A stretch of 63,554 nucleotides of DNA, the filler included, from Atractiella rhizophila (taxonomy: Eukaryota): the NCBI GenBank assembly GCA_021432655.1. It is 3 parts of 3 records of this genome, joined end to end, with 100 filler letters (N's around TTAATTAATTAA, not from the genome) between each part and the next. Parts side by side here need not be neighbours in the genome. Positions count along the whole stretch, not along the records: positions 1 to 30,333 come from MU271710.1; 2 more parts are not named here. One strand, written 5' to 3'. Positions 1,997-42,935 of this stretch are shown here, piece by piece; the stretch's first letter is position 1, and each line of letters begins with the position of its first letter. Position numbers and translations under genes: made by a program. The notes under the pieces were generated by a model that was not told the DNA's origin, searched no databases, and saw only the letters and a program-made list of their open reading frames with translations.

Positions 1997-2343
1997 CGGA
2001 ATGATTAACAAAACCGATCGACAGATCGGCGCGTCCAAATCTGGCCAACCGCCCCCGAAGAAGGGAGTCTCCTCCCTCCCCACAGGCAATCCTCCATCTC
2101 GCTCGGTTGCATCGGCCCTTGCTCCTCTTTCTTCTCAATCGAAGCATGGACTGACGGGCCTAGACGGGCCTCGATCGAAGAGACAGCTTGCGCTCCGTCC
2201 GAGATCACCTTCCTGTCAGATTCCAGCGAAGGAACGACCCGCCTCCTTCTCCCTTCCTCTTCCAGTTCGCGAACTCTTATATCCCTTCTTTCCGACTCCT
2301 GCACGTCCTCAGCAGCGTCTGTTCGCTCCAGTTACGCGTAACT

Positions 2344-3797
2344 ATGACGGAAATTGCCATCTTCGGTTGCGGGATCATTGGTCCGCTCACCGCTCACTTC
2401 CTCCTCTCCAAGTTCTCTTCTTCTCCAGAACAAATACACATCACCATCTACGAGGTCTACGCGTCCCTTCGCACCATCGGAGGAGCCGTGAACCTCTCCC
2501 CTAACGCTGTTCGACTGCTCTCTCATGTCGGTTGCGACCCGAGACGATATGGAGGCAAAACACCAATGGTTCTCTTCCAAAACGAACGCGGAGAGAGGGT
2601 GGGAGAATTTTTCTACTCGTGGCCAGCTGACGGCTGCGTCGGAATGCGTGTAGGAAGAAGAGATTTGATGGAGGACCTCGTCTCTCACCTTCCTGAGGAC
2701 GAAGGGAGGGTGAAGATCTCGTTCGGGAAGCGAGCTGTGCGAATGGAGGAGGTGGAGGAAGCGAAAGTGCGAGTGACGTTTGAGGATGGAGAAGAGAGGA
2801 TGTTCGACTGGGTCATTGGAGCGGATGGGATCCATTCTTTCACACGCTCCCAGATCCACGCTTCTTCCTCCGATGCACCAAAAGCGGTTTACAGCGGCAT
2901 TACGACCGTCTATGGTCTCCTTCCCTCCACTTCTATCCCAAAGGATCTCCTCGCCCCTCTCTCCTCGCACCGGTCGATCCGCACCATCTCACCGCACGCA
3001 GGACTCTTCTCTGTATCCTATTCGCGTGCTGACGACTCTCAGGTTCACTGGTTCTCCTCTCGCGCGCCACCCACACCTCCTTCTCCTGACGAAGCCGCAC
3101 CAGACGGCGAAGAGGTGAGGAAGGAACTGTTGGAGGCATACAAGGACTTCCCGGCGCCGATAGAGGAGGTGATACGGAAAACGGAGAAGATTTATTACTG
3201 GCCTGTCTTTCGTCTCTCCGATAAGGAACATAAAGGCCAGTGGTACTCTCCTAACGGACGAATAGTGCTAGTAGGCGTACGTCTCATCTTCCCTTCCTTT
3301 TCGTCCTAACATTGCTGACGTGGAGGAAGGATGCTGCTCACGCCCTCCCACCGTTCGCAGCTCAAGGCGTAGGCATGGGAGCGGAAGATGCTTCCCTCGT
3401 CTCTTCCATCCTTCACGCTATCACCACCTCCCATAAACCCATCTCTCCCTCCTCCATCCCTAAAATCTGGGAACGTGAATACGTAGCTCGGCGCGTTCCT
3501 CGAGTAGATGGGTTTATCAAGCATGCTGAGAGTCAAGGACGAGGGAGGAAAGACGATGGATGGTGGATTGGAAAGTTCAGGTCTGTCGTTCGTTCATCTA
3601 TCGTTCTTTTTCCCAACCCCTTTATCTGTTTCATTCTAAAAGCTATTTTGCGACACACTGTTGATACTGGGAACAGGGAATGGAGCCTCTGGCTCGCCTT
3701 TCCTCTCATCTCGCTCGTCAATTCTATGGGTTATTGGGACGTCCAAGGATGGGGTTATGATACCGAGAAGGAAAAGATATCAGTAGAAGACTTTTGA
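2344..3797 (+). CDS. FAD-dependent monooxygenase (salicylate hydroxylase/UbiH-like, FAD_binding_3), 2 introns
   Basis: N-terminal Rossmann motif IAIFGCGIIG, DG motif VIGADGIHS, and GD motif RIVLVG|DAAHALPPFAAQG split by an intron near 3276-3329; second intron about 3581-3677. Confidence 0.9.
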
Positions 3798-4365
3798 TTG
3801 GTTAGGTGCTCTTCCAGACGATGACGGCGACAATAGGTTTATTGACTCAATTAGGATCTGGTTTCTGGTTTCAATCTGCAAGGGCATTAGATTTCCCTAC
3901 CCTGTTCATATCCACTTATTGCTCATTGTAAATGGAAGTCACATACATTTTAACTTCGTAGGTATTTCACAGTCGCTCCAACATCTCTCCAGTGAGGTGG
4001 AAGCTTGGAAGCATAAAGCAGCCGCTGGAAGCTCAAGTAGTCCGACTCAGCACGATTAGGAAACAGATATGACCTGGGTTACAGCTCAGTTTCAGGTCCA
4101 AGATTTACAGGGGACGAAGGGACGAGGATCTTCAGTCGTGAGAGAAGTAGGGTTGGAAACGAGGAAGAGTTTCCAAGATGATTGTCAATATTGGATCCAT
4201 GGGTGGCGCGGTATATATCAAGAGGATAGTTAATATCTCTACCCGTAACCATTCATAACTTTAAGATATTGAAAGAATTGCTCAGGCAAAATCCCACACC
4301 TGCAACAGGAGGTCAGCTTAGAAGTGAGAGAGAGAAGTGTGCTGAAACCATTTCGACTTCGTTCA

Positions 4366-7300
4366 TCACTTGCATTCCGCCTGCGAAATTTTGTGTAGTA
4401 GATCATCACAGTCCTTGACATCGGCGGTGGCAAGACAACTTTCGTAAAGCTGACGGGCGCGAGTGGCCTCCTCCCTCGCGGGGACGTACCGTGAAGATTG
4501 GAAGAGGAGTTGGGCCAGGTCCTTTCTGCTGCGACCTTCGTAGTACTTCCCAGCTGCTGGACTCAAATTGACGGCTTCCTCAGAAACCTGGATCGCCTTG
4601 ACCATCTTATTGGGGTCTTGAGCGTAAACGGAACTTTGGCCAGCGAGGCAGTCAATTTGACCTCTAAGGTTTTGTACCGCCAGATAGAGCTCCTTCGCCT
4701 CCTCGAAACGTTTCAGCGATTCCTCCATTCGCCCGCGAAACTGCTCGATCCTGCCCATGCCACAATGGCAGTCTGCCAATCCCCACGGGTCTCCCACTAA
4801 CAAATAGAGCTCCATCGCCTCCCTGAAATGTTCCAACGCTCCTTCCATCCACCCCAAATGGCGCTTCAACTGCCCTGCGCTGCGAATGCAATGGGCTTCC
4901 CCTTGTCGATCCCCCACTTCGATGTAGAGCTCTCTCGACTCCATGAATGCTTTCAGCGCATCTTCGTTCCGACCACATCGAGAATCAATCTCCCCGACGT
5001 TGCGGATGCAGTGAGCCACCCCTTGTTGATCTCCCACTTGCATGTAGAGCTCTCTCGCCTTCTCGAATGCCTTCAACGCCTCCTCGTTCCGGCCGAGTCG
5101 AAAAGCAATCTCCCCAACGTTGCGGATGCAGTGAGCTTGCCCATTTCGATCTTCCACTTCGATGTAAAGCAATCTCGCCTCCTCGAATGCCTTCAACGCC
5201 TCCACGTTCCGGCCACATCGAAAATCAACTTCCCCGACGTTGCGGATGCAGTGAGCTTGCCCCATTTCGATCTTCCACTTCGATGTAAAGGAATCTCGCC
5301 TTCTCGAATGCCTTCAACGCTCCTCGTTCCGGCCACATCGAAAATCAACTTCCCCGACGTTGCGGATGCAGTGAGCTTGCCCATTTCGATCTTCCACTTC
5401 GATGTAAAGGAATCTCGCCTTCTCGAATGCCTTCAACGCTCCTCGTTCCGGCCACATCGAAATCAACTTCCCCGACGTTGCGGATGCAGTGAGCTTGCCC
5501 ATTTCGATCTTCCACTTCGATGTAAAGGAATCTCGCCTTCTTGAATGCCTTCAACGCCTCCTCGTTCCGGCCCGCGTCGAAAAGCAATCTCCCCAACGTT
5601 GCGGATGCAGTGAGCTTGCCCATTTCGATCTTCCACTTCGATGTAAAGGAATCAGCCTCATCGTGTTCGCCTTCGTCGACCCATCGCCTTCAACGCCTCC
5701 TCGCTTCCGTCGTCCACATCGAAAATCAACTTCCCCGACGTTGCGGATGCAGTGAGCTTGCCCATTTCGATCTTCCACTTCGATGTAAAGGAATCTCGCC
5801 TTCTCGAATGCCTTCAACGCCTCCTCGTTCCGGCCACATCGAAAATCAACTTCCCCGACGTTGCGGATGCAGTGAGCTTGCCCATTTCGATCTTCCACTT
5901 CGATGTAAAGGAATCTCGCCTTCTTGAATGCCTTCAACGCCTCCTCGTTCCGGCCGCGTCGAAAAGCAATCTCCCCAACGTTGCGGATGCAGTGAGCTTG
6001 CCCATTTCGATCTTCCACTTCGATGTAAAGCAATCTCGCCTCCTCGAATGCCTTCAACGCCTCCTCGTTCCGGCCACATCGAAAATCAACTTCCCCAACG
6101 TTGCGGATGCAGTGAGCTTGCCCATTTCGATCTTCCACTTCGATGTAAAGCAATCTCGCCTCCTCGAATGCCTTCAACGCCTCCTCGTTCCGGCCACATC
6201 GAAAATCAACTTCCCCAACGTTGCGGATGCAGTGAGCTTGCCCATTTCGATCTTCCACTTCGATGTAAAGCAATCTCACCTCCTCGAATGCCTTCAACGC
6301 CTCCACGTTCCGGCCACATCGAAAATCAACTTCCCCCGACGTTGCGGATGCAGTGAGCTTGCCCATTTCGATCTTCCACTTCGATGTAAAGGAATCTCGC
6401 CTTCTCGAATGCCTTCAATGCCTCCTCGTTCCGGCCACATCGAAAATCAACTTCCCCGACGTTGCGGATGCAGTGAGCCCCCTTGTTGATCTCCCACTTG
6501 CACGTAGAGCTCTCTCGCCTTCTCGAATGCCTTCAACGCCTCCTCGTTCCGGCCACATCGAAATCAACTTCCCCGACGTTGCGGATGCAGTGAGCTTGCC
6601 CATTTCGATCTTCCACTTCGATGTAAAGGAATCTCGCCTTCTTGAATGCCTTCAACGCCTCCTCGTTCCGGCCGCGTCGAAAAGCAATCTCCCCAACGTT
6701 GCGGATGCAGTGAGCTTGCCCATTTCGATCTTCCACTTCGATGTAAAGCAATCTCGCCTCCTCGAATGCCTTCAACGCCTCCACGTTCCGGCCACATCGA
6801 AAATCAACTTCCCCGACGTTGCGGATGCAGTGAGCTTGCCCATTTCGATCTTCCACTTCGATGTAAAGGAATCTCGCCTTCTCGAATGCCTTCAATGCCT
6901 CCTCGTTCCGGCCACATCGAAAATCAACTTCCCCGACGTTGCGGATGCAGTGAGCCACCCCTTGTTGATCTCCCACTTGCACGTAGAGCTCTCTCGCCTT
7001 CTCGAATGCCTTCAACGCCTCCTCGTTCCGGCCACATCGAAAATCAACTTCCCCGACGTTGCGGATGCAGTGAGCTTGCCCATTTCGATCTTCCACTTCG
7101 ATGTAAAGGAATCTCGCCTTCTTGAATGCCTTCAACGCCTCCTCGTTCCGGCCGCGTCGAAAAGCAATCTCCCCAACGTTGCGGATGCAGTGAGCTTGCC
7201 CATTTCGATCTTCCACTTCGATGTAAAGCAATCTCGCCTCCTCGAATGCCTTCAACGCCTCCTCGTTCCGGCCACATCGAAAATCAACTTCCCCAACGTT

Positions 7301-9694
7301 GCGGATGCAGTGAGCTTGCCCATTTCGATCTTCCACTTCGATGTAAAGGAATCTCGCCTTCTCGAATGCCTTCAACGCCTCCTCGTTCCGGCCACATCGA
7401 AAATCAACTTCCCCGACGTTGCGGATGCAGTGAGCTTGCCCATTTCGATCTTCCACTTCGATGTAAAGGAATCTCGCCTTCTTGAATGCCTTCAACGCCT
7501 CCTCGTTCCGGCCGCGTCGAAAAGCAATCTCCCCAACGTTGCGGATGCAGTGAGCTTGCCCATTTCGATCTTCCACTTCGATGTAAAGCAATCTCGCCTC
7601 CTCGAATGCCTTCAACGCCTCCTCGTTCCGGCCACATCGAAAATCAACTTCCCCAACGTTGCGGATGCAGTGAGCTTGCCCATTTCGATCTTCCACTTCG
7701 ATGTAAAGCAATCTCGCCTCCTCGAATGCCTTCAACGCCTCCTCGTTCCGGCCACATCGAAAATCAACTTCCCCGACGTTGCGGATGCAGATGGCAAGCC
7801 CCTGCCGATCTTCCGCCAGCCAATACAGCTCCTTTGCCTCTCCAAAACAATTCCATGCTTCTTTCATCTGCTTGCGAAGCAAATAGATCGTCCCTATGCC
7901 GTGAATGGAGTTAGCTTGTCCCCGTTGATCTTTCAGCAACAGAAACAGTTTCTTTGCCTCCTTAAAACGTTCTAGCGCTTTCTCCATCTGCCCGATCTTT
8001 CCTCTGCTGTGAGTGTAGCGCACTTCGCCTTGTCGACCTTCTATCTCTAGATAGAGCTGCGTCGCCTCCTGAAAAACTTGCTGTGCTGAATGTCGTAGGT
8101 CAGTCTCTGCCAGCGCATTTGTATTCTCTTTTTCTTCTGTTCTTTTTGGCTGAGAGATATCAAGACTTGCAAGGCTGGACTGGAGGTTGTTTGTGGATAA
8201 CTCATCCTCATTTTTGAGGATGAGTGCTGCATCTGCACCAGACGACGGAAGGTACCAGTCGTCAGGGAATTCGAGTGTCACCGCTACGCATTAGACGTCA
8301 CGGCTAGGCAGCTGAGCAGCAGAAACTTACAATCATCCTTTTCCTTAATGCAGTTTTGGCATGCCTCTAATAGGCCGGTCGCTTTCTTCACAGTCCATGC
8401 TTCGGGATCAAAAATCCACTGTGACTATGCCGAATCCTCAGCAATTTGATAACAAAAAGGGTCGATATAAAGGAATAAAGGGTATCTACCGTTTTACACA
8501 AGAGAGTGAGATGAATGTCAGAAGAAATGGCGACTTTGTTGCTTGGCCGTAACTGTCATAGGCGTGAGCGGCAAGTTCCCCTCAGAATGTAAGATGATAT
8601 CACCATCAACATGGCTTCGAGAAGAATATCCAAGGGATCAGGAGTCTGCCAAACGACACCAATTCAATCAGAACCACTGTTGAACCATGTTAGAAAGTTA
8701 CCAACCTTTTCACTTCCAGTAATCTCACAGAAGATTGGGTCAACAGATTCATCTTCACGTTGGGAGGGGGATGGTGGCCTGGAGCCTCGAGCTTCAGTCT
8801 TTAAAGGCAGAACTTTGTGCCACCTAAGCTTGATTCGACTGACAAACAATGTTTGATCTCCGACCCTATATGCAGCTGTGGACAAAATGCCATCTCCTGA
8901 AAATGGTGCTTGAAATTGGGACAAAGCATAAATGACGGCGGGCGCTTACGCGGCTGATGGAGACGTGGACCACGATGCAGACGAGCACCAGAAATGTTTC
9001 CACAATCACGTCCTATGTCGAATCCTACAGGCTGTAATCCAAATGTGAGATGAAAAGATTGACCACTCTCGGCAAAAGTTGCGTGAAGCCAGTCATATGC
9101 CTTAACAACTCCGATTACCATACAGATATCTCTGTCGTTGGCACAGCGGAAGTCGTTATCCAAATCTTCTCTTAGGACTTGCTCGTAATATCGCTTGAAG
9201 TAGGCCACTGCTAGAGGCACCTTTGCAACTTGGAAACGAGGGGCATCTTGTTTCGTGACGAGGAAAGCCGAATGTACAGAGTGACTTGCAATTTGAGCCG
9301 CGAAAGTTGGGGCGGGAACACTACGCTACTACTGAGCGTGAAATGCTTCATGATCGAGCAGAAGGACGTACATGGGGGCAGTGACATTTGCTGTAAAATT
9401 CGTAGATGACTTTGTACCCTTATATATGGGGGAGCCTGGACAGCAGCAAGCAGTGTCCAGAACGACCAGACCAAGCTCTGGGGCACCAGGACCCAACAAT
9501 TCGCGAACATTTCGCGACACCCAGAATTGGCCATCTCGGCAGTATCCGAAATCACCAATCTCACATTCTCCGTAAGGTTGTATCCTTCTTATCGAGCCAG
9601 ACGGATCCAACGGGTATGTTGGGTTGAAGAGGGGGAAATGATGACGAGAGTCGTACATCGTCTTCTGGTATATTTCCAGATCAGAGAGCGGCAT
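4366..9694 (-). CDS. Gasdermin-like N-terminal domain fused to a long TPR-like repeat array. Exons 9694-9372, 9320-8950, 8896-8706, 8645-8604, 8552-8490, 8424-8331, 8283-4366. Several frameshifts inside the array as assembled
   Basis: All six introns are GT..AG, 47-65 nt, and keep the reading frame. N-terminal motifs in order: FPLFNP, CEIGDFGYCRDGQF, ICMVIGVVKAYDWLHATF, HRGP, DQTLFVSRIKLR, DPLDILLEAML, VAISSD; I recognise these from basidiomycete gasdermin-like proteins. C-terminal 40-aa helical repeats ALKAFEEARLLYIEVEDRNGQAHCIRNVGEVDFRCGRNEE. Confidence 0.72.
4890..7790 (-). repeat. Coding tandem array of about 24 near-identical 120-bp (40-aa TPR-like) units, flanked by more divergent units (about 4366-4890 and 7790-8090)
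   Basis: The core CCCGACGTTGCGGATGCAGTGAGCTTGCCCATTTCGATCTTCCACTTCGATGTAAAG recurs every ~120 nt; only a few codon positions vary. Confidence 0.97.
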
Positions 9695-10816
9695 CGTAGT
9701 TATCCGCAGGTTCGAATCCTATTTTATCTGTGTTTCTCTCGTATGGCGTAGTGTTGATCAGAGATAGATGTTCGACCCTTACAGCTTTTATACCATCAGT
9801 AGAGCCTATCTGGACGTTTTCCAGCACAGGAGATTCGCAGAAATTACGGACAAAGGCGCGATATTGAGAACTTGACAGGAAGTGGAGGAGTTGCACTTGA
9901 ACACGTACGAACCGATATCTAAATTGATAACAATTGATTCTGACAGTTTCTTGAGCAACCTGTGGGTTCGCCCACAAAGTTCTGGGAGCCATTTTCTTTT
10001 CCTTCCAGAACACAGGTCGACACACAGGCCCTGTTTGGTTTGACTTCTTATCAAGCCAAAGTCAGCTCAAGACCACTTTCATCTTCCGAATGATTTACTG
10101 GCTGCCAGCCGGTGAAAAGCGCGAAGGTCGACAAAAGTGCAATGTGTTCTGGCACGACTTCGCATTCAAATTGAATATACTCTGCTAACTTTGTTTTTCA
10201 TGTCAACCTTGGGTATTGGATAACGTCTCTATCATCTGAAAGATTCACAGACTTCAGTCCTACTCGAAGGCACGAAAGTAGAAACTAAGATAGGACAACT
10301 GAGATAAAATATCGGAGTGTGACCTCTTGTCAGATTAAGAGTTACTGGGTTATTCCTTTGCCATAAAAAGGGTGTAAACCAACTATCTTTCAACACCTGT
10401 ACGATGAGACAAGCCAAAAAAAGTGCAATTTAATCAAATGCACTTACTAAAGTCTAACTGCACCTTATGATTCAAACATACTGCTTGTAGAAACATTTAG
10501 GGAAGGATTCAATCAGAGAGACCTCCAGCAGTTGTACTAGATACCAACGCCGAGATCATGGAGGAAGCGTACCGTTCCATCTTTATCTTTATCACGACCA
10601 AGCAACCAATTACTCTATCAGTTCATGTTCCTTTTCTCTTCCCTTCTAATAGCCTCTCTTCCATGTAGATACCCTAGATCTACTTTGGCATTTAGTTCCA
10701 CAACCCGTAGTAAGTTAGTTGACCGTAATCTTAAGGACAATGACACTACAGTCAGCAAGGGCCACGTAAAACAACGACTCTCGGTTATCCACTCAGCGCT
10801 CTCTTCGAGTGCAACC

Positions 10817-16706: not shown

Positions 16707-17033
16707 TGGACGTATCTCAACTTGTCTTCGGGAGGCATGTATATAACCTTCTGACTCTGCTTTTCGTTGTCCAAAATTGCACATCTGGTCATGTCTTTTT
16801 TACCCCTTCGCACTTATTCTGGCATGCTACAGCACGCCACCGATGCTGGTCTAAAGAAGGAGGGTATAAGTGGGGGGAGTGCTACAAAAAGCACTGCACA
16901 AGAGGAGACAACTGAGGAAAGGCGAGAGTATGAAATCATAGAATTCTTGAGAATACCATGTTAATATTGTCAATGTTAATGTTCTATATTGATATTTGAC
17001 GTTCGCAACGTTCACCTCAACTACCTCAACTCC

Positions 17034-20000
17034 AAATTGAACGGTAGCTGTACTCACGATGACGGCCAAAACACGACCCGCATATTGTCCTGTCTACTAT
17101 TCGTGACCATCTCAATCGTTAGTTGTTCCTTGATTTAAACAGTTTCATTATCGGATGTTGGACAAGTTGATGACTGAAAGTGCAGCGGGTACGTACAACG
17201 CGGATACGGCAGCTAGACACGGCGATGTTGACTTCCTTTTCGATCCCGTTTTCGACTTTCTCTTTCACCTTCTTCCCTTATTATTACTTTATTTCAGCAC
17301 GTCAGCTTCAGCCCTCTCTTCAGCGTCATAGCCTCTTCTTTGCCACTACGGTACCACCTACTACAGCTCTTTTTGACAACCAGAGCTACATAGCATAGGA
17401 CAGCACAAGCAGAGCAAGATGCGACTCTTCCCTAAGAAGAAAGAGAAATCCTTCTCCGTCATCTACCCGCCCAAGGACAAGAACAGTCTAAGCGGAGATG
17501 GAGCTGGCGGAGGGGAGGAGTCGAGGTATGATTCAGATACTATTATTGGGAGGGCCAAGGAGAAACCTGTCAAGAGCAGTTTGAAGAAGGTGCGCTTCTC
17601 TTTCTTTCTTGTCTTTTGTTTTCGAGGGTGTCTGGTTCTCTTCTTGTGTCTATTGGAGCTATTGCAGAGTGGATAGGGTGCGATGCAACGCAAACATCAT
17701 GTTGGCAGGAGATGGAGAGCTGAGCGCTAAGCCCGGCGCCACCACGCTAGAAGCTAGAAGCTTCAGGCACGGGTCACATTGTCTCTTGCACTTTCTCCCC
17801 GATTCTCTACTGCTGCATCGACGATAGAAGCTGCGCAAACTGGGGCAGATCTGCATTTTACATTGTTGTGCATTCGACATCTTGGGATCTTGACGTCATG
17901 CGTTCTCCCATTCATTGCCATTCATTCGTCTTTGATCCAATTTCCTTCCAGCATCGATCCATCTAGGCGGATGCCAGCTAAAGTGGTAGCTCTTTAACAG
18001 GTCTGATGAGCATTTAGTTATTTCTTCTTGACGGATCCAATAACAGCGCGGTAGTGTTGACCAGCGAAATCCTGCATACTATGCTCACCGTGGTGTACCT
18101 GTTTGGGTTGCAGTACAGGGTCTGCATTGCTTTATCGTCTCCCTATCTAATGAAGATCACTCTTTTAATTCCACGGCAAAGATGCTGCTGAGGCAGCAAG
18201 TACGAATGCAAGGCATATTGTAGCTTTTGTGCTACCCTAAGGCATGGATAATAGAACTAGTTGGTATACCGGAAGGAGAATTTTATTTCCTGCGATCTAT
18301 TTTCCTGGGCTGTTATTGGATTATCCTTCCTCATGTCACCCTGAATCTGACCCTAAAGGCCCCTCCTTAATTCTCTTGTTCTTTTGACAGACATCTTCCC
18401 GCCCAACGCCAGCGGCGATCGAACTCCCAGATCCTTTCGCGTCTAAACCTCAAGAACCCTCCAGCACCAAAGCCACCACGGCCCACTCCCCAACGTCCAT
18501 CCCACGTTCCTCTTCGCCGCTCGTCCACTCGAATACTCTCACGACCTCTTCTGAGATCGGGGCGTCGACGGCGCCGTCGACTGCGCCGAGTGCGGCGGTT
18601 ACAGATGGGGAGAAGGAGGACGAGGAGGAGAAGGAGGGGGATAGAGAGAAGGCGGAAAGGGGTGGGGAGTTGGAAGGGAATATGAATGCGGATGCGGATG
18701 CGGACGAGAGGAAGGCAACGAAGGATGGGTCGATCAATTATTCTCTACTCATCAAGAGGCTCAAGAGCTCGCGATCGTCTGCTTCTTCTACTCCTTCCTC
18801 TCCTACCAAAGCATCCAAATTCATTCCGAGTGCTCCCCCAGAAAGTTCTAAAGAGACGTATTCGACTGAAAAGGAACCCAAGTCTGCTCCGCGGAAGAAG
18901 AAGGAGTCGACAAAGTCGAGACCGTCCCTCGAATCTTCTTCCCTCGCGAGAGCTAATTCCAAACATTCGACAAAATTGAACGGTAGCTGTACTCACGATG
19001 ACGGCCAAAACACGACCCGCATATTGTCCTGTCTACTATTCGTGACCATCTCAATCGTTAGTTGTTCCTTGATTTAAACAGTTTCATTATCGGATGTTGG
19101 ACAAGTTGATGACTGAAAGTGCAGCGGGTACGTACAACGCGGATACGGCAGCTAGACACGGCGATGTTGACTTCCTTTTCGATCCCGTTTTCGACTTTCT
19201 CTTTCACCTTCTTCCCTTATTATTACTTTATTTCAGCACGTCAGCTTCAGCCCTCTCTTCAGCGTCATAGCCTCTTCTTTGCCACTACGGTACCACCTAC
19301 TACAGCTCTTTTTGACAACCAGAGCTACATAGCATAGGACAGCACAAGCAGAGCAAGATGCGACTCTTCCCTAAGAAGAAAGAGAAATCCTTCTCCGTCA
19401 TCTACCCGCCCAAGGACAAGAACAGTCTAAGCGGAGATGGAGCTGGCGGAGGGGAGGAGTCGAGGTATGATTCAGATACTATTATTGGGAGGGCCAAGGA
19501 GAAACCTGTCAAGAGCAGTTTGAAGAAGGTGCGCTTCTCTTTCTTTCTTGTCTTTTGTTTTCGAGGGTGTCTGGTTCTCTTCTTGTGTCTATTGGAGCTA
19601 TTGCAGAGTGGATAGGGTGCGATGCAACGCAAACATCATGTTGGCAGGAGATGGAGAGCTGAGCGCTAAGCCCGGCGCCACCACGCTAGAAGCTAGAAGC
19701 TTCAGGCACGGGTCACATTGTCTCTTGCACTTTCTCCCCGATTCTCTACTGCTGCATCGACGATAGAAGCTGCGCAAACTGGGGCAGATCTGCATTTTAC
19801 ATTGTTGTGCATTCGACATCTTGGGATCTTGACGTCATGCGTTCTCCCATTCATTGCCATTCATTCGTCTTTGATCCAATTTCCTTCCAGCATCGATCCA
19901 TCTAGGCGGATGCCAGCTAAAGTGGTAGCTCTTTAACAGGTCTGATGAGCATTTAGTTATTTCTTCTTGACGGATCCAATAACAGCGCGGTAGTGTTGAC

Positions 20001-20910
20001 CAGCGAAATCCTGCATACTATGCTCACCGTGGTGTACCTGTTTGGGTTGCAGTACAGGGTCTGCATTGCTTTATCGTCTCCCTATCTAATGAAGATCACT
20101 CTTTTAATTCCACGGCAAAGATGCTGCTGAGGCAGCAAGTACGAATGCAAGGCATATTGTAGCTTTTGTGCTACCCTAAGGCATGGATAATAGAACTAGT
20201 TGGTATACCGGAAGGAGAATTTTATTTCCTGCGATCTATTTTCCTGGGCTGTTATTGGATTATCCTTCCTCATGTCACCCTGAATCTGACCCTAAAGGCC
20301 CCTCCTTAATTCTCTTGTTCTTTTGACAGACATCTTCCCGCCCAACGCCAGCGGCGATCGAACTCCCAGATCCTTTCGCGTCTAAACCTCAAGAACCCTC
20401 CAGCACCAAAGCCACCACGGCCCACTCCCCAACGTCCATCCCACGTTCCTCTTCGCCGCTCGTCCACTCGAATACTCTCACGACCTCTTCTGAGATCGGG
20501 GCGTCGACGGCGCCGTCGACTGCGCCGAGTGCGGCGGTTACAGATGGGGAGAAGGAGGACGAGGAGGAGAAGGAGGGGGATAGAGAGAAGGCGGAAAGGG
20601 GTGGGGAGTTGGAAGGGAATATGAATGCGGATGCGGATGCGGACGAGAGGAAGGCAACGAAGGATGGGTCGATCAATTATTCTCTACTCATCAAGAGGCT
20701 CAAGAGCTCGCGATCGCCTGCTTCTTCTACTCCTTCCTCTCCTACCAAAACATCCAAATTCATTCCGAGTGCTCCCCCAGAAAGTTCTAAAGAGACGTAT
20801 TCGACTGAAAAGGAACCCAAGTCTGCGCCGCGGAAGAAGAAGGAGTCGACAAAGTCGAGACCGTCCCTCGAATCTTCTTCCCTCGCGAGAGCTAATTCCA
20901 AACATTCGAC
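17034..20910 (+). repeat. Direct tandem duplication of 1938 bp (17034-18971 and 18973-20910)
   Basis: Identical ORF set at an offset of 1939; a single extra A at the junction (18972); only three substitutions seen, all near the 3' end. Confidence 0.97.
17419..19077 (+). pseudogene. Truncated 5' duplicate of the PX-domain gene (exon 1, long intron, part of exon 2) reading into a new C-terminus
   Basis: Same MRLFPKKKEK start as 19358; after ANSKHST the frame crosses the junction into KLNGSCTH...ILSCLLFVTISIVSCSLI and stops at 19077. Confidence 0.6.
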
Positions 20911-23900
20911 GTATACCTCTGATGCTCACTTCACTGATGCCCCCGAAGGTGAGAGTGAGGCAGGGCACGCCGTCCCTGGAGAGGAAAGAAAGAAGGAGGA
21001 GGAAAAGGAAAGCGGAGGGTTGAAGAGACCTTCGTTCCCCTTGACGAGGAGGGGAAGCAAATTCAATGAAGAGTTTAAGTCGGCGCCGCCGTCGCCTACC
21101 AAGTCTGCGGATGCGGGCAAGGAGAAGGAGAATGGCGTAGAGAGAAAGAAGAGTGTGCGATTGCCTGCGGATGAGAAATCGTTGAAGAGCACGAAGAGCG
21201 TGAAGAGTGTAAAGAGCGCAAAGGACGAGAATAGACCGGTTAAGAGGACAACGACCAAATTGGTCAAGAGGAGGTCGACGCCTTCAATGGCTGCGGATCC
21301 GAGGAAGGAGGAGAAGATTGAGGTGAAGAGGCTGGCTTATTCCCAGTCTATCAAGGCTAAGGATACGATCGAGAGTCCTGCGGGTTTGGGGAGGACGAGA
21401 TCTGTTGACAGTTCGAAGAGAGAGAAGAAGGATGATCTGGATGAGGGATTCATCGATTTTTCGAAGTCTATCAAGAGAGACACGTCGAGGAGTACGAGGG
21501 AGAAGAGGGAGAGTGTCAAGGAAAAGGAAAAAGAACAGAAAAGAAAGCCAAGTTTGAAGGGGAAGGAGAGGGCGATAGAATATGACGTGGAAGAGGTGCA
21601 AATCGAGAACCGACCCCCGTCCCGTTCCAGTCAGAGATTATTCCTTCGTCCTAAGACGCCGGACGAGAACGAGACGTCGGAAGAGGATGAGCCGCCGCCG
21701 AGGTCGCGACCGCCGTCCATTGCGAGCTCGAGGAGGAGTGGAGTGAGTAAGAAAAGCACGAGGAAGAGCGTGAGGATTGAAGAGTCGTCAGCTGGCGAGG
21801 AGGTGGTGGAGAAGGAGAAGGAGAGGAAAGGTGGATTGACGCTGATGCAGAGGCATTATTTGAACAAGAGTCTCGTCTAGTGCGCATCATTTCCTTGCTC
21901 CAGCCGGTTGGTTGACGTCTGTGGGCTAGTATGGAGATGCAACGCGAGTGGAACACTCTTTCCAAAGTCGGCGCACTGACGAAGTACGGTCCTCCCTTCC
22001 TGCCCACTCCTGCTATCCACAAGACGACCACAAAGGCTCGGATGTCTCGCATCCAATCTGCTACTTCAAGTGATTCGGAAGGCAAACAGTCTCGTCGCCA
22101 AAGCACCTGGTTTGGGACATTCAAGAATCGGAGTTCGAGTACGGGAATCGGAGGGGCAGCTAATGAACCTGAGCATCCAGAACTGATGCAAGTCGAGGTA
22201 GATGCGGAAGTAGAGGAGAGCCCGATGCTCAAGTACCTTTACTGGCGATTTGTCAATAATTTTCCTGGATTGAAAGAGGCCAAGTTGGCATATTGGCAAA
22301 AGAATATTCAGCCTTTCTTCGATTCTATAGCTGCGAGGGAGCTTAGTGAAAGCGGTGGGGAGAGGGCTGAGATCACCAAAAGGTCCGCCTTTCTACTGTA
22401 TATCTGGAAATACTCGTTGATATCCAGTGTAGGAAACTCCTTGCTACTGGCATCACTCGCATCCTTGGTACTTACTTTTCGACTTGCGTAACGAGCGCAG
22501 GAGATTCTACTCCTGCGCGACCAGATAAAAAGATCACGAAGCGATTGGACGACGTGTTCCCTGGTGACATGGATGCGATGTGCATCGAGATTGTTGGAAG
22601 TAGCAAGAAGCAGTCGGGCCAAGCGAGATACAATGCTTGGGTCGCTGTCGTGGATTCACGGGATTCTAAGGGGCAGGTATGCTCTTTTATCACCTTCCCT
22701 TCGTTGTTGAGGCTAACCTAGATGGTAGTTTATTGTTTTAACGCGCGTGTTGACCGGCACATCCAAGCCTTATTACCTTACCCACAGAACGCGAGCAGAG
22801 TTTGAGGCTTTTGATGGAGACGTAGGTTGATGTGCTGAATCGAAAGAATATGCTCATTGCTTTGAACAGCTCAAGGAGATCAAGTTACCATCTTCCTTCG
22901 ATTTCCCCATTCTTTCCAGCGGAGCTTCTCTCCACATTCTGCAACGATGGCTTAGACATGTTGTCATTGCACTCTCCAATCCGAACCCCGAAGTCAAGCG
23001 AACCCCAGCGCTTACCAAGGCACGTCAACTCATGGAGGCTTTCTTGCTAGATGGTGGCAGGCAACTGAACAATCGAGAGCGGGACTCCTTGGTGAACAAG
23101 GCGAAGGCGGCGGATGAGAAAGCGATGCGGGACCGTAAGATTTGGCTGAAGTTGGGAACGAGAGCTAGAAAGGTGTGGTCCTATCCTTACTGGGGATATT
23201 CGAGGTTAAATATTTGAATTGCAGTTGAGAACAACCTGGCATGCCTATAAAGCGGCTCTCATTGATGGTAACGAAATTGACCGCTCTTTCGCCCAACTCA
23301 AGAAGCATGAGCGTTATGAAAATCTGCCGGAGACCTATAGGATCACTCAGGAGTGGGCCCGCATCTGGGTTGCCTACATGCTTCAGTTCGTTCTCTTCAC
23401 TGCCTGGAATCGAACTGACGCTGTTCCAGCTTTGTCTTCGCAGCTGCTCCTAACGCAAGAGACATCACCCTCCTCGTCCAGGCAATTCACAATCACATGC
23501 CCTACGGCTTGATGAAACAGGGGTTAAAGATGATCAACCCCACTTTCATGATCAAGTTAGTTTCCTTCCTGTTCCGTTGCTCCAGTCTCATTTTCGTTCA
23601 GATTTCTCGTCAATCTGTTCTGTGCACATCCGCCTGGAGCTCTGAGCCTCATTCAAAGGTGATTTGCATCAGATTTCCATAGAGCAGGTCTCACAGTTGG
23701 ATCAGGATTTTATGTATGCCGCTCAACAACGAGATCAAGAGCCTGAAGCGGGAGATTCGTGAACTTGAAGCTGAAGTGAAAGATGAACAGATCGTCAAGA
23801 TCCTGGCCGACCATGCCGCTGCATCTAGAGAGGAACAGAGCCGCATTCATTCTATGGCTGGTCCGTATTTGTTTTGCGTATCCAATTTGAGTTTCAATAC

Positions 23901-26110: not shown

Positions 26111-27696
26111 TGTGATTGATGAGTGAGGTTCTGATCCTTGGTGGCCAGAGGGACGAATGTCGAAAGTCACAATGCTCGCCTTGCAGGGACGACGTCGACC
26201 CGTCGTCGGAGATGCGCAGACGTGGGCAATGAGATATTAGAGCGTGATCTCTTCGTCCTGCCAGCGCCTACTTCAGCTGGCCTGACCTCTTCCCCCGCTC
26301 TCACGTCATCTGACAGTGTTTGACGTAGCCATCAAGTTCTCCCTGTCATAAAAGGAGTAGAGACAAGAATTCCCCCCCGTGACACCTCATTTCGATCTTT
26401 GAGACTCCTCCGCCGACTACCAAATAGTATCAACAACTGCAACCAAAAGCGAGATCATGCCTTGCAGGTTCGCTGCTCCAGAATTCACTCTGAAACTGCA
26501 ATGAAAATGGAATCTGATGTGGATGCAGCAACGACAAATGCAGCTGCTCCGGCACTGCTGGTGCCCAATGTTCCTGCGGCAGCAGTGCGTTATTGCTCCT
26601 CCAGCCTCCTGTCCTGAATCGAGAAGGTTGACGTTATCGTGGATGAATGCTAGGCTGCTCGTCTTGCGACGCTGGCAAGTGCAACTGCGGTCAGAAATGA
26701 AAGCAGATATCCCTTTAACTAGGGGTTCCCTGTGCGTTTTCTCTTGTGCAATCTAAACTCTTGCTGAAGAAGACGCAGAGCACGATTTCCCAATTTCGAA
26801 TAATGTACTATTAAAGATTGCGAGACAAATGAATCACAAGAGATCAGTTAGCCCCTATTACAGGTTCATATTACAGGTTCATATTGTACCTAGCTTTTGA
26901 TGACGTACAAGTTGAGGAGAGGACGACCTAAAGCCTGAGAAAACGAACCAGGTCAAACGAAAAAGAGGTATTTGCGAGGCGTAGACGTTTTCAGTGCTGG
27001 TGCAGCAGGTCCTCCAACATTAAACGCGCAGATGTGAGCACGAAAGTTGGCCACAAAGACCAACACTGGTGTCGATAGCTAGGTAGTCAGGAATCCGCTT
27101 TGTAACAACGTGCTGAAAGAATGGCACTGTATGAGCAATCCTCTGGTCCTTCAGAAGAACCACACTCTCAGTGACGGTCACCGGTAAAAACGAGTTCTAG
27201 CATGTCTGGAATGTACTAGCGGTAGAAAACACGTTTTTTCTCTTGCTGGGTGGAGGCTTGGAAACGTATCATCGTTCCACACTTTGAAGCCTTGGATATC
27301 TGCTGCTGTTGAAAATCAATCATGCCTGGACCAGCTTGAATGACTGGTTATGGCCGGAGAAAGAAATAAGCAGGCCAATAACACGAAAAGAGACGCTTTG
27401 ATCGAGCTCACCTTATGTACACGTGTTACGTCAACCTCGAGAATACCTCCCGACTGGGAGACCTTGATGAGGTCGTGGGGAGTCGCGGGTTTGCGCAAAC
27501 TGACAGTCTGGCAGCTTTGCATGGGAATTTGGAACAACCCGCAACTGGTCAACGACCATCTCACTCTCTGGTGAGTCTTCCGGTGATTTCTCTAAGGTAT
27601 TAGGCTATACTTTACTAGGAATAACTGCTGATGTTCCTCTGTCAGGTACATCTGCGCTACAACCTTTCAATCTCTGAATTGAGACATCGAGTGAAG

Positions 27697-29253
27697 ATGA
27701 CGTCCAGCTCCGCTACTATACCTCTCGAGATTATTGGCGTCATCCTCGCGTTCCTTCCTACCTGCGACTTGCTTCAATGCCACTTGGTGAGCGCAGAATG
27801 GAAGTCGCTCGCTCGTCCTTTGCTCATTTCGAAAACGACTATCGTATTTGACACTTCGCACGACCCTCTTAAAGACGGCGGTTTTCAGCGTTATTTATTC
27901 CGATTGCAACGATTTTTCGACAACGAGCTCAACTTTCAATATGTACGAAGGATTTCGATGAACGCCTTTGCATTCACATTCAACCAGCCATTGTGGAAAG
28001 AACCCGAGGGCGAGGAGAAGGATCCGATGGACAGAAAATTCGGCGGCGACGATGGTTCGAACATTTTGGCTCGCGATTATGTTCGCTCGTTCATCGAGAA
28101 CGCGTCTCCTTACATCACCTCCTTGACGTTTGAAGTTGACTTTTTCGCCTTTTTCGGTTGGGAGTCCATGCAAAAATGGCCGTTTCCTTCTCTGCCAGCT
28201 TTGACAGACATCAAGATCCAATATGTTCCTACCCGATCTATATCTGCCATATTTCCCCTGCTTGGGGCGTCACGACAACTAAAATCCTTGGAATGCACCT
28301 TTGGAACTGCAGACGTCGATGTAGCTGAACACAGTTTCAAGTTGCAAAGTCTTTCCTTGAATTCTGCAATTGTTCCAGCAAAGCTTCCTTCCCTTTCAAA
28401 TCTAAAGGATCTTCATGTCCACGCTATAGGAAGAACTCCAGCAGAACTCGGTCATGTCGCAAATCTGCTTCAACTTGCTTCTCCTACAGTGCAAACCCTC
28501 AATCTTGCACTGCTCCACACTCAAAATGAGCACAGGCATCTTGTCCGATTCCCCGTTGTTTTCCCTCGCTTGAGGCAGTTGAGCGTTTCCGGACCTTCCG
28601 ACCAACCAAGGCGCCTCGACGTTTTGGAAGTCCTACCTTTATTACCACATTTCCCAACTATGGACATCGTCGCCATCAAACATAGTGCAATATGTCTCAA
28701 AGCTCCTTCATTCGAACCTTGGGTGTTTAGACCCATAAACGTCTTGTTACAAAATTGCGACTTCAGCTACACCGGATTATCATCTCTATTTACCACAAAG
28801 CGAAACATGATCTCCTTTCATGTCGCTCCGCTCGAAGGGATCCGGTCCCAGTCCGCCATGGATATCTTGCGCTTTGCTAATGATTGCCAGGGATTTCTGC
28901 AGCTCTTCGAGTCGACAACCACCAGCGATCCCATACGTGATATGGAGCTCCTTTCCGTCGTTCCACACATACATTGCACATGCTGTCTTTCCATCGTTGG
29001 TTTTTCAGCTGGTGCCTTACTTTCTTTCAATGGGAAGGAAGATGCGGGAGTCTGGTTGGCTTTTGCCGATACTATCAACCGTCACTCTTTTCCGGGGATC
29101 CAGGAATACTCTATTGGGTCGGAAAGAGAGCCTGTGGAGGTTAGGACTCAAGCAGGGAGAGACGCGATTCGAGCCTTAGAGTTAGCCGTGGAGCAGCAAA
29201 ATGTTATGCCGTTGAGCACTTTTGTGGAATACTTCGAGGATGACGCACCTTAA
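27697..29253 (+). CDS. F-box protein with LRR-like C-terminal region (intronless)
   Basis: IPLEIIGVILAFLPTCDLLQCHLVSAEWKSLARPLL is an F-box; LxxLxL repeats follow (LPALTDIKI, LQSLSL, LKDLHV, FPRLRQLSV). Confidence 0.8.
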   Translation: MTSSSATIPLEIIGVILAFLPTCDLLQCHLVSAEWKSLARPLLISKTTIVFDTSHDPLKDGGFQRYLFRLQRFFDNELNFQYVRRISMNAFAFTFNQPLWKEPEGEEKDPMDRKFGGDDGSNILARDYVRSFIENASPYITSLTFEVDFFAFFGWESMQKWPFPSLPALTDIKIQYVPTRSISAIFPLLGASRQLKSLECTFGTADVDVAEHSFKLQSLSLNSAIVPAKLPSLSNLKDLHVHAIGRTPAELGHVANLLQLASPTVQTLNLALLHTQNEHRHLVRFPVVFPRLRQLSVSGPSDQPRRLDVLEVLPLLPHFPTMDIVAIKHSAICLKAPSFEPWVFRPINVLLQNCDFSYTGLSSLFTTKRNMISFHVAPLEGIRSQSAMDILRFANDCQGFLQLFESTTTSDPIRDMELLSVVPHIHCTCCLSIVGFSAGALLSFNGKEDAGVWLAFADTINRHSFPGIQEYSIGSEREPVEVRTQAGRDAIRALELAVEQQNVMPLSTFVEYFEDDAP

Positions 29254-41350: not shown

Positions 41351-42935
41351 ATGCTTCGTCTTTCTCTGCGACCCACATTAGCACTTCGACGCGGCTTCCA
41401 CTCGACTTCAACCCTACATAAGCGGGTGATCAAGCCTTTCTTCCTGGCTGATATTGGAGAAGGCATTGCAGAATGCGAGGTAGTGAAGTGGTGAGCCCTT
41501 TCTTCGAGCCATACAAAGAATAGAGGGTAATAGGCACTGTGGTAGAAGGCTTGTGAAGCCACCTAAGGAACTTGAACGCTTTGATCCAATATGTGAAGTC
41601 CAATCTGACAAGGCTTCAGTGGAGCTCACTTCTCCGTTCGATGGCAACCTTGTGAAGACCTTCTGCGAGCAGGGGGAGATTGTGAAAGTTGGGAGCAAGT
41701 TGTGCGAGTTTGAGGTCGAGGAAGATGTCTTGGATGAGGAGGCACAAGAGGACGTTAAACCTGCGGAGGAAGAGCACCGCGAGAACCAAGAGAGGGGAGA
41801 ACTAGAGGTCAAGGAACAGGAAAAGGAGGACGCAAAAGCAGAGGAAAATGTGTTTGTCCTTGCTACTCCGGCAGTACGACGAGTAGCAAGGGAGGAAGGG
41901 GTTAACCTGTCAAAGATCACCGGGACTGGGAAAGGAGGACGCATAACGAAGGAGGACGTGTTCGCTGCAGCCTCTGGCGCGTCTCCGTCTGCCCCATCCT
42001 CTGGATCTGCACCTGCGCCGACCCAGTCAGGCTCCGCGGTCTCTTACCAAACGCCTTCCTTTGAGTCTCTCTCGACCTCATCAGCTGAACCAGTGTCTCG
42101 TCCTCTTTCCACCGTCCGACGCGCTATGTACAAAGCCATGACATCCTCTCTGTCAATTCCCCACTTCACCTATTCCGACGAGATTGACGTGACGGAACTG
42201 GAAAAGATGCGGCTGAAGCTGAACAAATCAATTCCTTCGCGGTTCAAAAAGGAGCTGTCTCGGAAGGAGAAAGAGCCAGCCGACCGTGTACCTGAAGGCT
42301 CGAGATTCGATCGGCTTACTATGCTACCCTTATTCGTCAAAGCATTATCTTATGTCCTACGTGATCACCCCATCTTCCGATCGAAACTTGTTGTGCCTGA
42401 TGGTCAACTCGAGAAGGCTACACTCTTAGAATCTCCAAAAGGATTAATTTCCCTCGCCCTTTCATCTCCTCTCGGTGGTGGCCTCTTTACTCCTTGCCTT
42501 CCAAACGTTGGCGATGCCACAGTATTTGAGGTTGCGTCGACGATAGCCTATCTCCAATCTCTCGCTCTTGCTTCTCCGACTCCCAAGTTCCCCGAGCCAT
42601 TCAGAACTCCCGGCACCATCACACTCTCCAACATTGGGTCAATAGGAGGAACTTATACGCATCCTGTCATTCCTCCAGGAGGTCAACTTGCCATTGGTGC
42701 CTTGGGGAAGGCAAAGGTGCTGCCTCGTTACGTGGGAAAGGAGCAAGAGATTGCAAAACGAGAGGCGGTTGCTGAGTATGAGGGAGAAGAAGCAAGCTGG
42801 GAGCCGAGGCTGATCATGAATGTTTCCTTCAGCGGAGATCACAGGGTCGTGGAAGGTATGGAGTTAGCTATGTTGGTGAAAGATTGGAAGGAATTGGTGG
42901 AGAATCCAGAGAATATGATTGGTCTGGGACGATGA
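41351..42935 (+). CDS. DBT: Dihydrolipoamide branched-chain acyltransferase (BCKDH E2)
   Basis: FLADIGEGIAECEVVKW; lipoyl motif EVQSDKASVE; E3-binding ATPAVRRVA..GTGKGGRITKEDV; catalytic SGDHRVVEG. Confidence 0.95.

Follow-up and report, generated by a model that had tools for sequence, protein, structure and literature searches.

A candidate gasdermin-like domain joined to a near-identical TPR array in one predicted gene of Atractiella rhizophila

Does a single fungal gene couple a repeat array of the sensor type to a domain able to kill the cell? The question is raised by a locus on the minus strand, at positions 9694-4366, of a 63,554-nucleotide (nt) stretch of the Atractiella rhizophila assembly GCA_021432655.1. 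This whole stretch is called the window below, and its positions 1-30,333 come from MU271710.1. The original prediction for this DNA had described a gasdermin-like pore-forming domain fused directly to tetratricopeptide repeats (TPRs). We conclude that the locus is very probably a real, transcribed, seven-exon gene of a basidiomycete-like fungus, and that the N-terminal domain and the TPR array belong to this one gene. A gasdermin identity of the N-terminal domain is plausible, with a modest preference in its favour.

The exon model was built from three-frame translation and then from homologs. It starts at ATG 9694 on the minus strand, the first ATG after an in-frame stop, and contains six introns of 51, 53, 60, 51, 65 and 47 nt. 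All six have GT..AG borders and three have good donors (GTACGT, GTAAGC and GTAAGT). After conceptual splicing, the frame stays open for 944 codons. Exons 1 to 6 encode the N-terminal domain of 361 amino acids (aa), and about 60-65 aa lie between this domain and the first TPR-like helix pair. The original prediction had six short GT-AG introns placing the pieces at 9694-8331 in frame with the open reading frame (ORF) at 8283, followed by a domain of about 360 aa and a linker of about 60 aa. The measured values agree, the splicing has contig and homolog support, and the seven motifs that had been quoted are all present in the translations. The prediction had also seen neither a Walker A motif between domain and repeats nor a nucleotide-binding oligomerisation domain (NOD). 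Indeed, the 944-aa spliced frame contains no [AG]xxxxGK[ST] match, and only TPR-type families, with low-scoring overlaps on the same repeats, were found in ORF 8290-6533.

Public contigs (Logan) from four runs, X1 to X4, were placed on positions 4200-10100. X4 is a root metatranscriptome; the kind of X3 is unrecorded, and it behaves here as complementary DNA. X1 and X2 are taken as DNA because their contigs pass unspliced through introns. Homologs of the N-terminal domain are designated by P numbers. The features of the gene are as follows.

9372..9694 (-): exon 1, from ATG 9694, coding for a helix motif at the N-terminus and for the strands EIGDFGY..DGQF; matches the N-termini of Atractiella homologs and is covered by X3 record 22 and X4 records 28 and 29
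9321..9371 (-): intron 1, 51 nt, GTACGT..TAG; X3 record 22 lacks exactly these nucleotides
8950..9320 (-): exon 2, core of the N-terminal domain with YFKRYY, CMVIGVVKAYDW, the amphipathic strand pair SFHLTFGLQPVGFDIG and HRGP; phmmer E 1.2e-25 to P0002
8897..8949 (-): intron 2, 53 nt, GTAAGC..CAG; donor chosen because GPRLHQP aligns with GPTTHKP of P0002
8706..8896 (-): exon 3, GDQTLFVSRI strand followed by an acidic Pro/Ser-rich loop; X3 record 20 ends at 8706
~8831-8706 plus 8645-8640 (-): the acidic Pro/Ser-rich loop, 54 residues from GDQTLF to DPLDIL
8646..8705 (-): intron 3, 60 nt, GTTGGT..CAG
8604..8645 (-): exon 4, TPDPLDILLEAMLM; the helical subdomain begins, and the equivalent helices of P0004 have a predicted local distance difference test (pLDDT) of 70-88
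8553..8603 (-): intron 4, 51 nt, GTGATA..CAG
8490..8552 (-): exon 5, LRPSNKVAISSDIHLTLLCKT
8425..8489 (-): intron 5, 65 nt, GTAGAT..TAG; acceptor chosen because it fits the spacing in homologs
8331..8424 (-): exon 6, end of the helical subdomain, from homolog alignment and tblastn
8284..8330 (-): intron 6, 47 nt, GTAAGT..TAG, linking the N-terminal domain to the repeat ORF; the match of X4 record 27 breaks off at 8283
7796..8283 (-): first part of exon 7, with VTLEF (last conserved motif of the domain), a linker of about 60 aa and two to three degenerate TPR units
4866..7790 (-): near-identical array, 24.2 TPR_12-type units of 120 nt (40 aa)
5257..6595 (-): indel-bearing part of the array, containing every frame-breaking indel and lacking usable contig cover
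4366..4865 (-): array end, with divergent final TPR units, a C-terminal cap and the stop TGA at 4368-4366
4400-5082 (-): array end covered by X1 record 2, X2 record 10 and X3 record 16, with one mismatching letter each
4300..4348 (-): intron in the 3′ untranslated region (UTR), 49 nt, GT..AG, 18 nt past the stop codon; spliced in X4 record 23

Transcript-like contigs support both ends of this model. X3 record 22 corresponds to 9720-9372 followed by 9320-9160, with exactly intron 1 removed. X3 record 20 terminates at the end of exon 3 (8706), and X4 record 27 terminates at the start of exon 7 (8283), where it continues with 26 extra letters that are off the stretch. On the 5′ side, X4 record 29 extends to 9734, giving a 5′ UTR of at least 40 nt. 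On the 3′ side, X4 record 23 extends from 4707, among the final TPR units, past the stop codon and omits 4298-4346, equivalent to 4300-4348 after a 2-nt shift. Contig joints at 4714-7800 and 4726-8124 were left unused, as they resemble repeat collapse or paralogs.

Homology supports the same gene structure. When eight Atractiella proteins were compared by tblastn with the whole window, the matches were confined to 9697-8335 and followed the model exon by exon (best E 1.3e-59). When the spliced product is aligned locally to P0003 and P0006, the match extends to residues 412 and 407 of the product, respectively, beyond the exon 6/7 junction. Since exon 7 holds the repeats and these alignments enter exon 7, homology spans the junction between the domain and the repeat exon.

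The two DNA runs X1 and X2 show two versions of the promoter region at 9721-9856, with many substitutions and small insertions, and a 1-nt deletion at 8902, within intron 2. The source would appear to be either heterozygous or dikaryotic. Exons 1 and 2 have a further, more diverged copy in X1 record 5 (15 and 27 differing letters), possibly a paralog.

What is the N-terminal domain? By phmmer and word-seeded profile searches, its relatives are nine hypothetical proteins, all from Atractiella rhizophila. Five of the six matches from an exhaustive phmmer run on a 102-aa piece of exon 2 were true Atractiella relatives; the sixth, P0007, was rejected as a relative, its match being low complexity. 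Word-seeded profile searches added four further relatives. Three word-seeded searches returned either nothing or proteins of Atractiella rhizophila only: one compared the 102-aa exon piece with longer proteins, one used alignment A1, and one used A3, an alignment restricted to the core, at E<=10. Metagenome scans with alignment A1 and with exon 2 gave zero relatives, as did contig scans of other genomes with the TPR ORF and with the ORF of an E2 acyltransferase encoded in the window. For the five relatives compared with the window protein, identity amounts to 39-47% across 317-358 aligned columns.

These relatives, among them BT69DRAFT_681786, _1355560, _1293587, _1351345 and _1290713, are true homologs. 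They share every conserved motif and the domain in its entire length, down to the acidic Pro/Ser-rich loop and the helical part behind it. Unlike the window protein, the homologs retrieved carry no TPRs; they are unannotated and unstudied, and their C-termini are either RNase III-like or without family. P0002 ends shortly past the domain. P0008 (residues 558-661) and P0009 (residues 258-286) show weak RNase III-like matches of 21.6 and 27.1 bits, below the Pfam cutoff of 35; this region, if real, could bind double-stranded RNA. P0005 and P0006 have one C-terminal region in common and P0004 and P0010 each have a distinct one, all without a family match. The occurrence of the same N-terminal domain with differing C-termini indicates a portable N-terminal module. 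This module of 361 aa is a lineage-restricted, beta-rich domain that closes with a disordered acidic/Pro-rich loop and, after it, a small helical bundle.

In the repeat array, Tandem Repeats Finder (TRF) detected a 120-nt unit present in 24.2 copies at 4866-7790, with 88% matches, and the total reaches about 30 TPR units when degenerate units at both sides of the array are included. On the 585-aa ORF 8290-6533, TPR_12 scored 214.1 bits against a cutoff of 30.1 (E 2.1e-64) and TPR_10 scored 111.9 bits; the remaining two array ORFs match similarly. The hypervariable type proposed for the array is supported: the 17 intact canonical units have a mean nucleotide identity of 93%, with 15 of the 136 pairs identical. 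At the protein level, 27 of the 40 unit positions are invariant and 13 are variable, and 18 of the 28 variable nucleotide columns fall at codon positions 1 and 2. The concentration of variation on these 13 positions suggests ligand-facing diversity. The units belong to a few types set in higher-order blocks, the pattern expected from recent unequal exchange. Overall, this is the near-identical, fast-reshuffling TPR type known from fungal NOD-like receptors (NLRs). Near-identical repeats have been described for the sensor domains of these receptors (PMC12881547, PMC10197012).

In the bin 4594-4790, which holds a late TPR unit, contig depth is 4-20 times that of flanking single-copy sequence, and position 4719 is common to 16-25 contigs per DNA run. 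From this depth and this sharing, the source genome probably contains many related TPR genes.

A possible link of the N-terminal domain to gasdermins comes from the ESM Atlas, where the homolog P0002 has a model with a predicted template modelling score (pTM) of 0.62 and a pLDDT of 0.55. By features, the 30 clusters closest to P0002 consist of hypothetical Basidiomycota proteins to which Pfam assigns no family; the first three score 0.97, with lengths of 330-363 aa and 66-113 members. Among feature clusters that carry a family name, Bact_GSDM (0.84) and PJVK/Gasdermin (0.80) come closest. The structure search again places Basidiomycota proteins first, with template modelling (TM) scores of 0.42-0.64; one of these clusters comprises 57 WD40 proteins of 801 aa, and its match covers P0002 residues 28-393 (TM 0.58). 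After these come Gasdermin D (TM 0.36/0.29, 211 aligned) and two bGSDM clusters (TM 0.33/0.47 with 187 aligned; TM 0.32/0.44 with 179 aligned). Besides the fused WD40, gasdermin is thus the sole named family near P0002 in both feature and structure searches. A search of the Atlas with the 102-aa exon piece gave only bacterial matches, all below 0.9.

Two properties of the family can be set beside these neighbours. In the family profile, amphipathic beta character peaks, at about 2.9 standard deviations above the mean, in the conserved strand pair SFGLNVGVQPAGF, where hydrophobic and small residues alternate. In addition, the layout of a beta-rich core, a 54-residue loop and a helical part fits, by analogy, that of gasdermins, which is described as N-domain, linker and inhibitory part (PMC13475620, PMC10197012). 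On the strength of the Atlas neighbours, we lean towards a gasdermin-like fold for the N-terminal domain.

Several results weigh against the idea of a working gasdermin with a TPR sensor in cis. Searches of Pfam at E<=1 with the window exons and P0002 to P0006 assigned no family to the N-terminal domain; the copy searched contains PF04598 and lacks PF26164, the bacterial gasdermin profile. At E<=10, PADLOC gave zero gasdermin matches, NCBIfam gave no gasdermin and a single unrelated match on P0006 far under the cutoff, and a profile search of PDB sequences gave no gasdermin, its sole row being a YceI-like protein (E 1.7). The Atlas neighbours speak for the predicted gasdermin identity, whereas the four sequence searches do not. 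Moreover, every Atlas gasdermin score lies under the bars of the tool, and the feature and structure searches count as one source. The fold check by AlphaFold and Foldseek that had been suggested failed to give a meaningful gasdermin match. The AlphaFold2 models were poor, with a pLDDT of 37.3 for P0002 (12-row alignment) and 40.6 for P0004 (13 rows), and only the helical part of P0004 (residues ~262-327) was confident, at the values given above. Foldseek and VIA fold searches with this low-confidence P0004 model returned noise only. The domain is also about 100 aa longer than the known fungal gasdermins, reported as 244-278 aa (PMC13475620), and the RNase III-like C-terminus of the paralogs is no obvious sensor.

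The genomic surroundings and the transcript evidence add to these points. Among the 90 ORFs of at least 75 aa in positions 1-22,000, none matched a protease family at E<=0.01, and thus no S8, CHAT or caspase gene was seen by a scan that misses exons shorter than 75 aa. Protease families were also unmatched in 17 longer ORFs up to 56 kb. The splicing of intron 1 and the edges at 8706 and 8283 are borne out by RNA contigs, but the single transcript that the prediction called for is not: no contig in the four runs joins the 5′ exons to the 3′ end.

Finally, the array as assembled is not one open frame. The reading is out of frame past codon 944, and the array is split into ORFs 8290-6533, 6414-5551 and 5313-4366, with a net shift that is not a multiple of 3. 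The predicted count of about 30 repeats stands, whereas their continuity in one frame does not, owing to indels in six units. These units are 6595-6479, 6358-6238, 5757-5616, 5615-5495, 5494-5377 and 5376-5257, with lengths of 117, 121, 142, 121, 118 and 120 nt in that order; the last contains two offsetting indels. Five of the six carry single-base indels, mostly in short T, G or C runs, and are otherwise equal to intact unit types, barring one substitution. The remaining unit, 5757-5616, has 22 surplus bases that are scattered. All six lie in the array interior, where polishing is hardest. Judging from the sequence context of the indels, they are probably assembly errors of an unpolished long-read consensus. 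Most of the array interior is without Logan contig cover, and several bins have a depth of 0 in all four runs; these bins prove nothing on the indels, because bins of indel-free units also have a depth of 0. If the indels are assembly errors, the full protein is predicted to have about 1,650 aa.

How, then, should the protein be read? Taking everything together, our best explanation is that of a gene encoding a divergent gasdermin-like pore-former with a TPR sensor in cis, and we hold it tentatively. In this explanation, the N-terminal module would be a very divergent gasdermin-like pore-former kept inactive by the helical bundle and the C-terminal part. The TPR array would act in cis as a sensor or regulator and bind a ligand. 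The trigger for release would be either a conformational change on ligand binding by the TPRs or an unlinked protease that cleaves the loop. Once free, the beta-rich part would enter the membrane and the cell would die, as a response to non-self or to a pathogen. A function as sensor and executioner of cell death, argued from analogy with known systems, is possible and is put forward with still more reserve.

Three other accounts have to be weighed against this explanation. The fusion may be real while the domain is a lineage-specific module without pore activity (adaptor, enzyme or regulator) and the TPRs are a protein-binding scaffold, which we regard as doubtful. Such a role is in line with the lack of any family linked to the domain at the sequence level and with Atlas gasdermin scores that lie within the chance-or-distant range of the tool. 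The RNase III-like and other non-repeat tails would also suit a regulatory or localising module as well as an effector. It leaves aside, however, that, of the named families, both Atlas searches place gasdermins alone near P0002, and that a beta-rich core followed by a disordered loop and a helical part agrees with the gasdermin arrangement. Near-identical fungal repeat arrays, moreover, typify non-self-recognition receptors (PMC12881547, PMC10197012). It is quite unlikely that the protein is a conventional gasdermin activated by a protease encoded elsewhere, with TPRs that replace the inhibitory tail or recruit the protease and sense nothing. No protease was found in the window region scanned, a fast-varying array of about 30 units would be costly as a mere plug, and the concentration of variation at 13 of 40 positions suggests diversity that faces a ligand. 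Nevertheless, 20% (373/1,884) of fungal gasdermin genes are reported to lie away from a protease gene (PMC8851545), and a bacterial gasdermin-LysM-like fusion keeps a neighbouring protease (PMC13475620); the exposed 54-residue loop of the window protein is a plausible cut site.

The third account takes the array indels as real. The gene would be decaying or truncated, and its product, if made at all, would comprise 944 residues with about 11 near-identical units. The indels in six units, the net shift that is not a multiple of 3 and the stop at 6533 are as this account requires, and no read or contig contradicts it in the four runs, in which the array interior is mostly uncovered. We consider it unlikely. 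Five of the six units have single-base indels, mostly in base runs, in otherwise intact types; unit 5757-5616 is garbled as in a poor long-read consensus; and all indels are interior. In addition, RNA contigs extend from the last part of the array over the stop codon to the spliced 3′ UTR intron, and the N-terminal exons are intact.

The divergent pore-former with a cis sensor can be compared with known systems. Fungal gasdermins are described as short and mainly from Ascomycota, with separate activating proteases that bear TPR, WD40 or ANK repeats (PMC8851545, PMC10197012, PMC12881547). About 80% of them neighbour an activating protease of the S8, CHAT or caspase-like type. The window protein may have a pore-forming fold in common with HET-Q1 and RCD-1, which act with HET-Q2-like proteases, and it resembles them in its succession of beta-rich core, flexible loop and putative inhibitory part, with TPR, WD40 or ANK repeats in the pathway. 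In those systems, however, the repeats are on the separate protease, whereas in the window protein the TPRs are on the candidate gasdermin itself. The window domain also differs by its length (361 aa versus 244-278 aa), by the absence of a PF04598 match and by the lack of a protease found in 1-22 kb.

Fungal NLRs offer a second comparison, and examples with near-identical TPR, WD40 or ANK arrays are PLP-1 (NB-ARC-TPR) and HET-E. Like the window protein, fungal NLRs combine a putative N-terminal effector with a C-terminal near-identical array in which a minority of positions is variable (PMC12881547). Unlike them, the window protein has no NACHT, NB-ARC or Walker A, and so lacks the oligomerisation switch by which NLRs are defined. 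NACHT and NB-ARC were also unmatched in the ORFs of at least 75 aa of 1-22 kb and in the 17 long ORFs up to 56 kb. The Gloeobacter protein GKIL_3049 resembles the window protein in having a gasdermin module, a flexible loop of about 50 aa and an extra C-terminal domain; it differs in being bacterial, in having a LysM-like partner instead of a repeat array and in having an adjacent protease gene (PMC13475620). In the open-access main texts surveyed, no gasdermin fused to TPR or WD40 repeats is described.

Known fungal death pathways divide the labour, an NLR or a repeat-bearing protease sensing and a separate gasdermin or HeLo protein killing; alternatively, a NOD domain couples sensing to killing. 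A killing domain fused to a fast-evolving repeat sensor would, if true, be the shortest such pathway, and would raise the question of how activation proceeds without NOD oligomerisation or cleavage by a partner. Gasdermin-type death would be extended to Basidiomycota, where the surveyed main texts report few or no cases, and a family of hundreds of proteins currently labelled hypothetical would receive a name. Because Atlas clusters of 57 to 113 members point there, one may go further and imagine a large Basidiomycota clade of gasdermins invisible to sequence methods. Its members would have TPR, WD40 or RNase III-like cis sensors and form single-chain receptors without NOD or a dedicated neighbouring protease; this wider proposal is speculative and somewhat unlikely. 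If the fold lead fails, the domain would be a new, unannotated modular domain of root-associated basidiomycetes, of modest interest.

The annotated neighbours are of ordinary kinds. An FAD-binding monooxygenase-like ORF at 2164-3794 (+) adjoins the gene on its 3′ side. Further along, an F-box protein is encoded at 27625-29253 (+), and the 2-oxoacid dehydrogenase E2 acyltransferase used in the contig scans lies at 41487-42935 (+). Between these, 17028-20915 is a head-to-tail tandem duplication of 1,939 bp, in which 17028-18976 and the sequence 1,939 bp onward share 99.4% identity. The ORFs of this duplication are doubled as well: the one at 18388-19074 is shortened, and its copy at 20327-21877 encodes 517 aa with no Pfam match.

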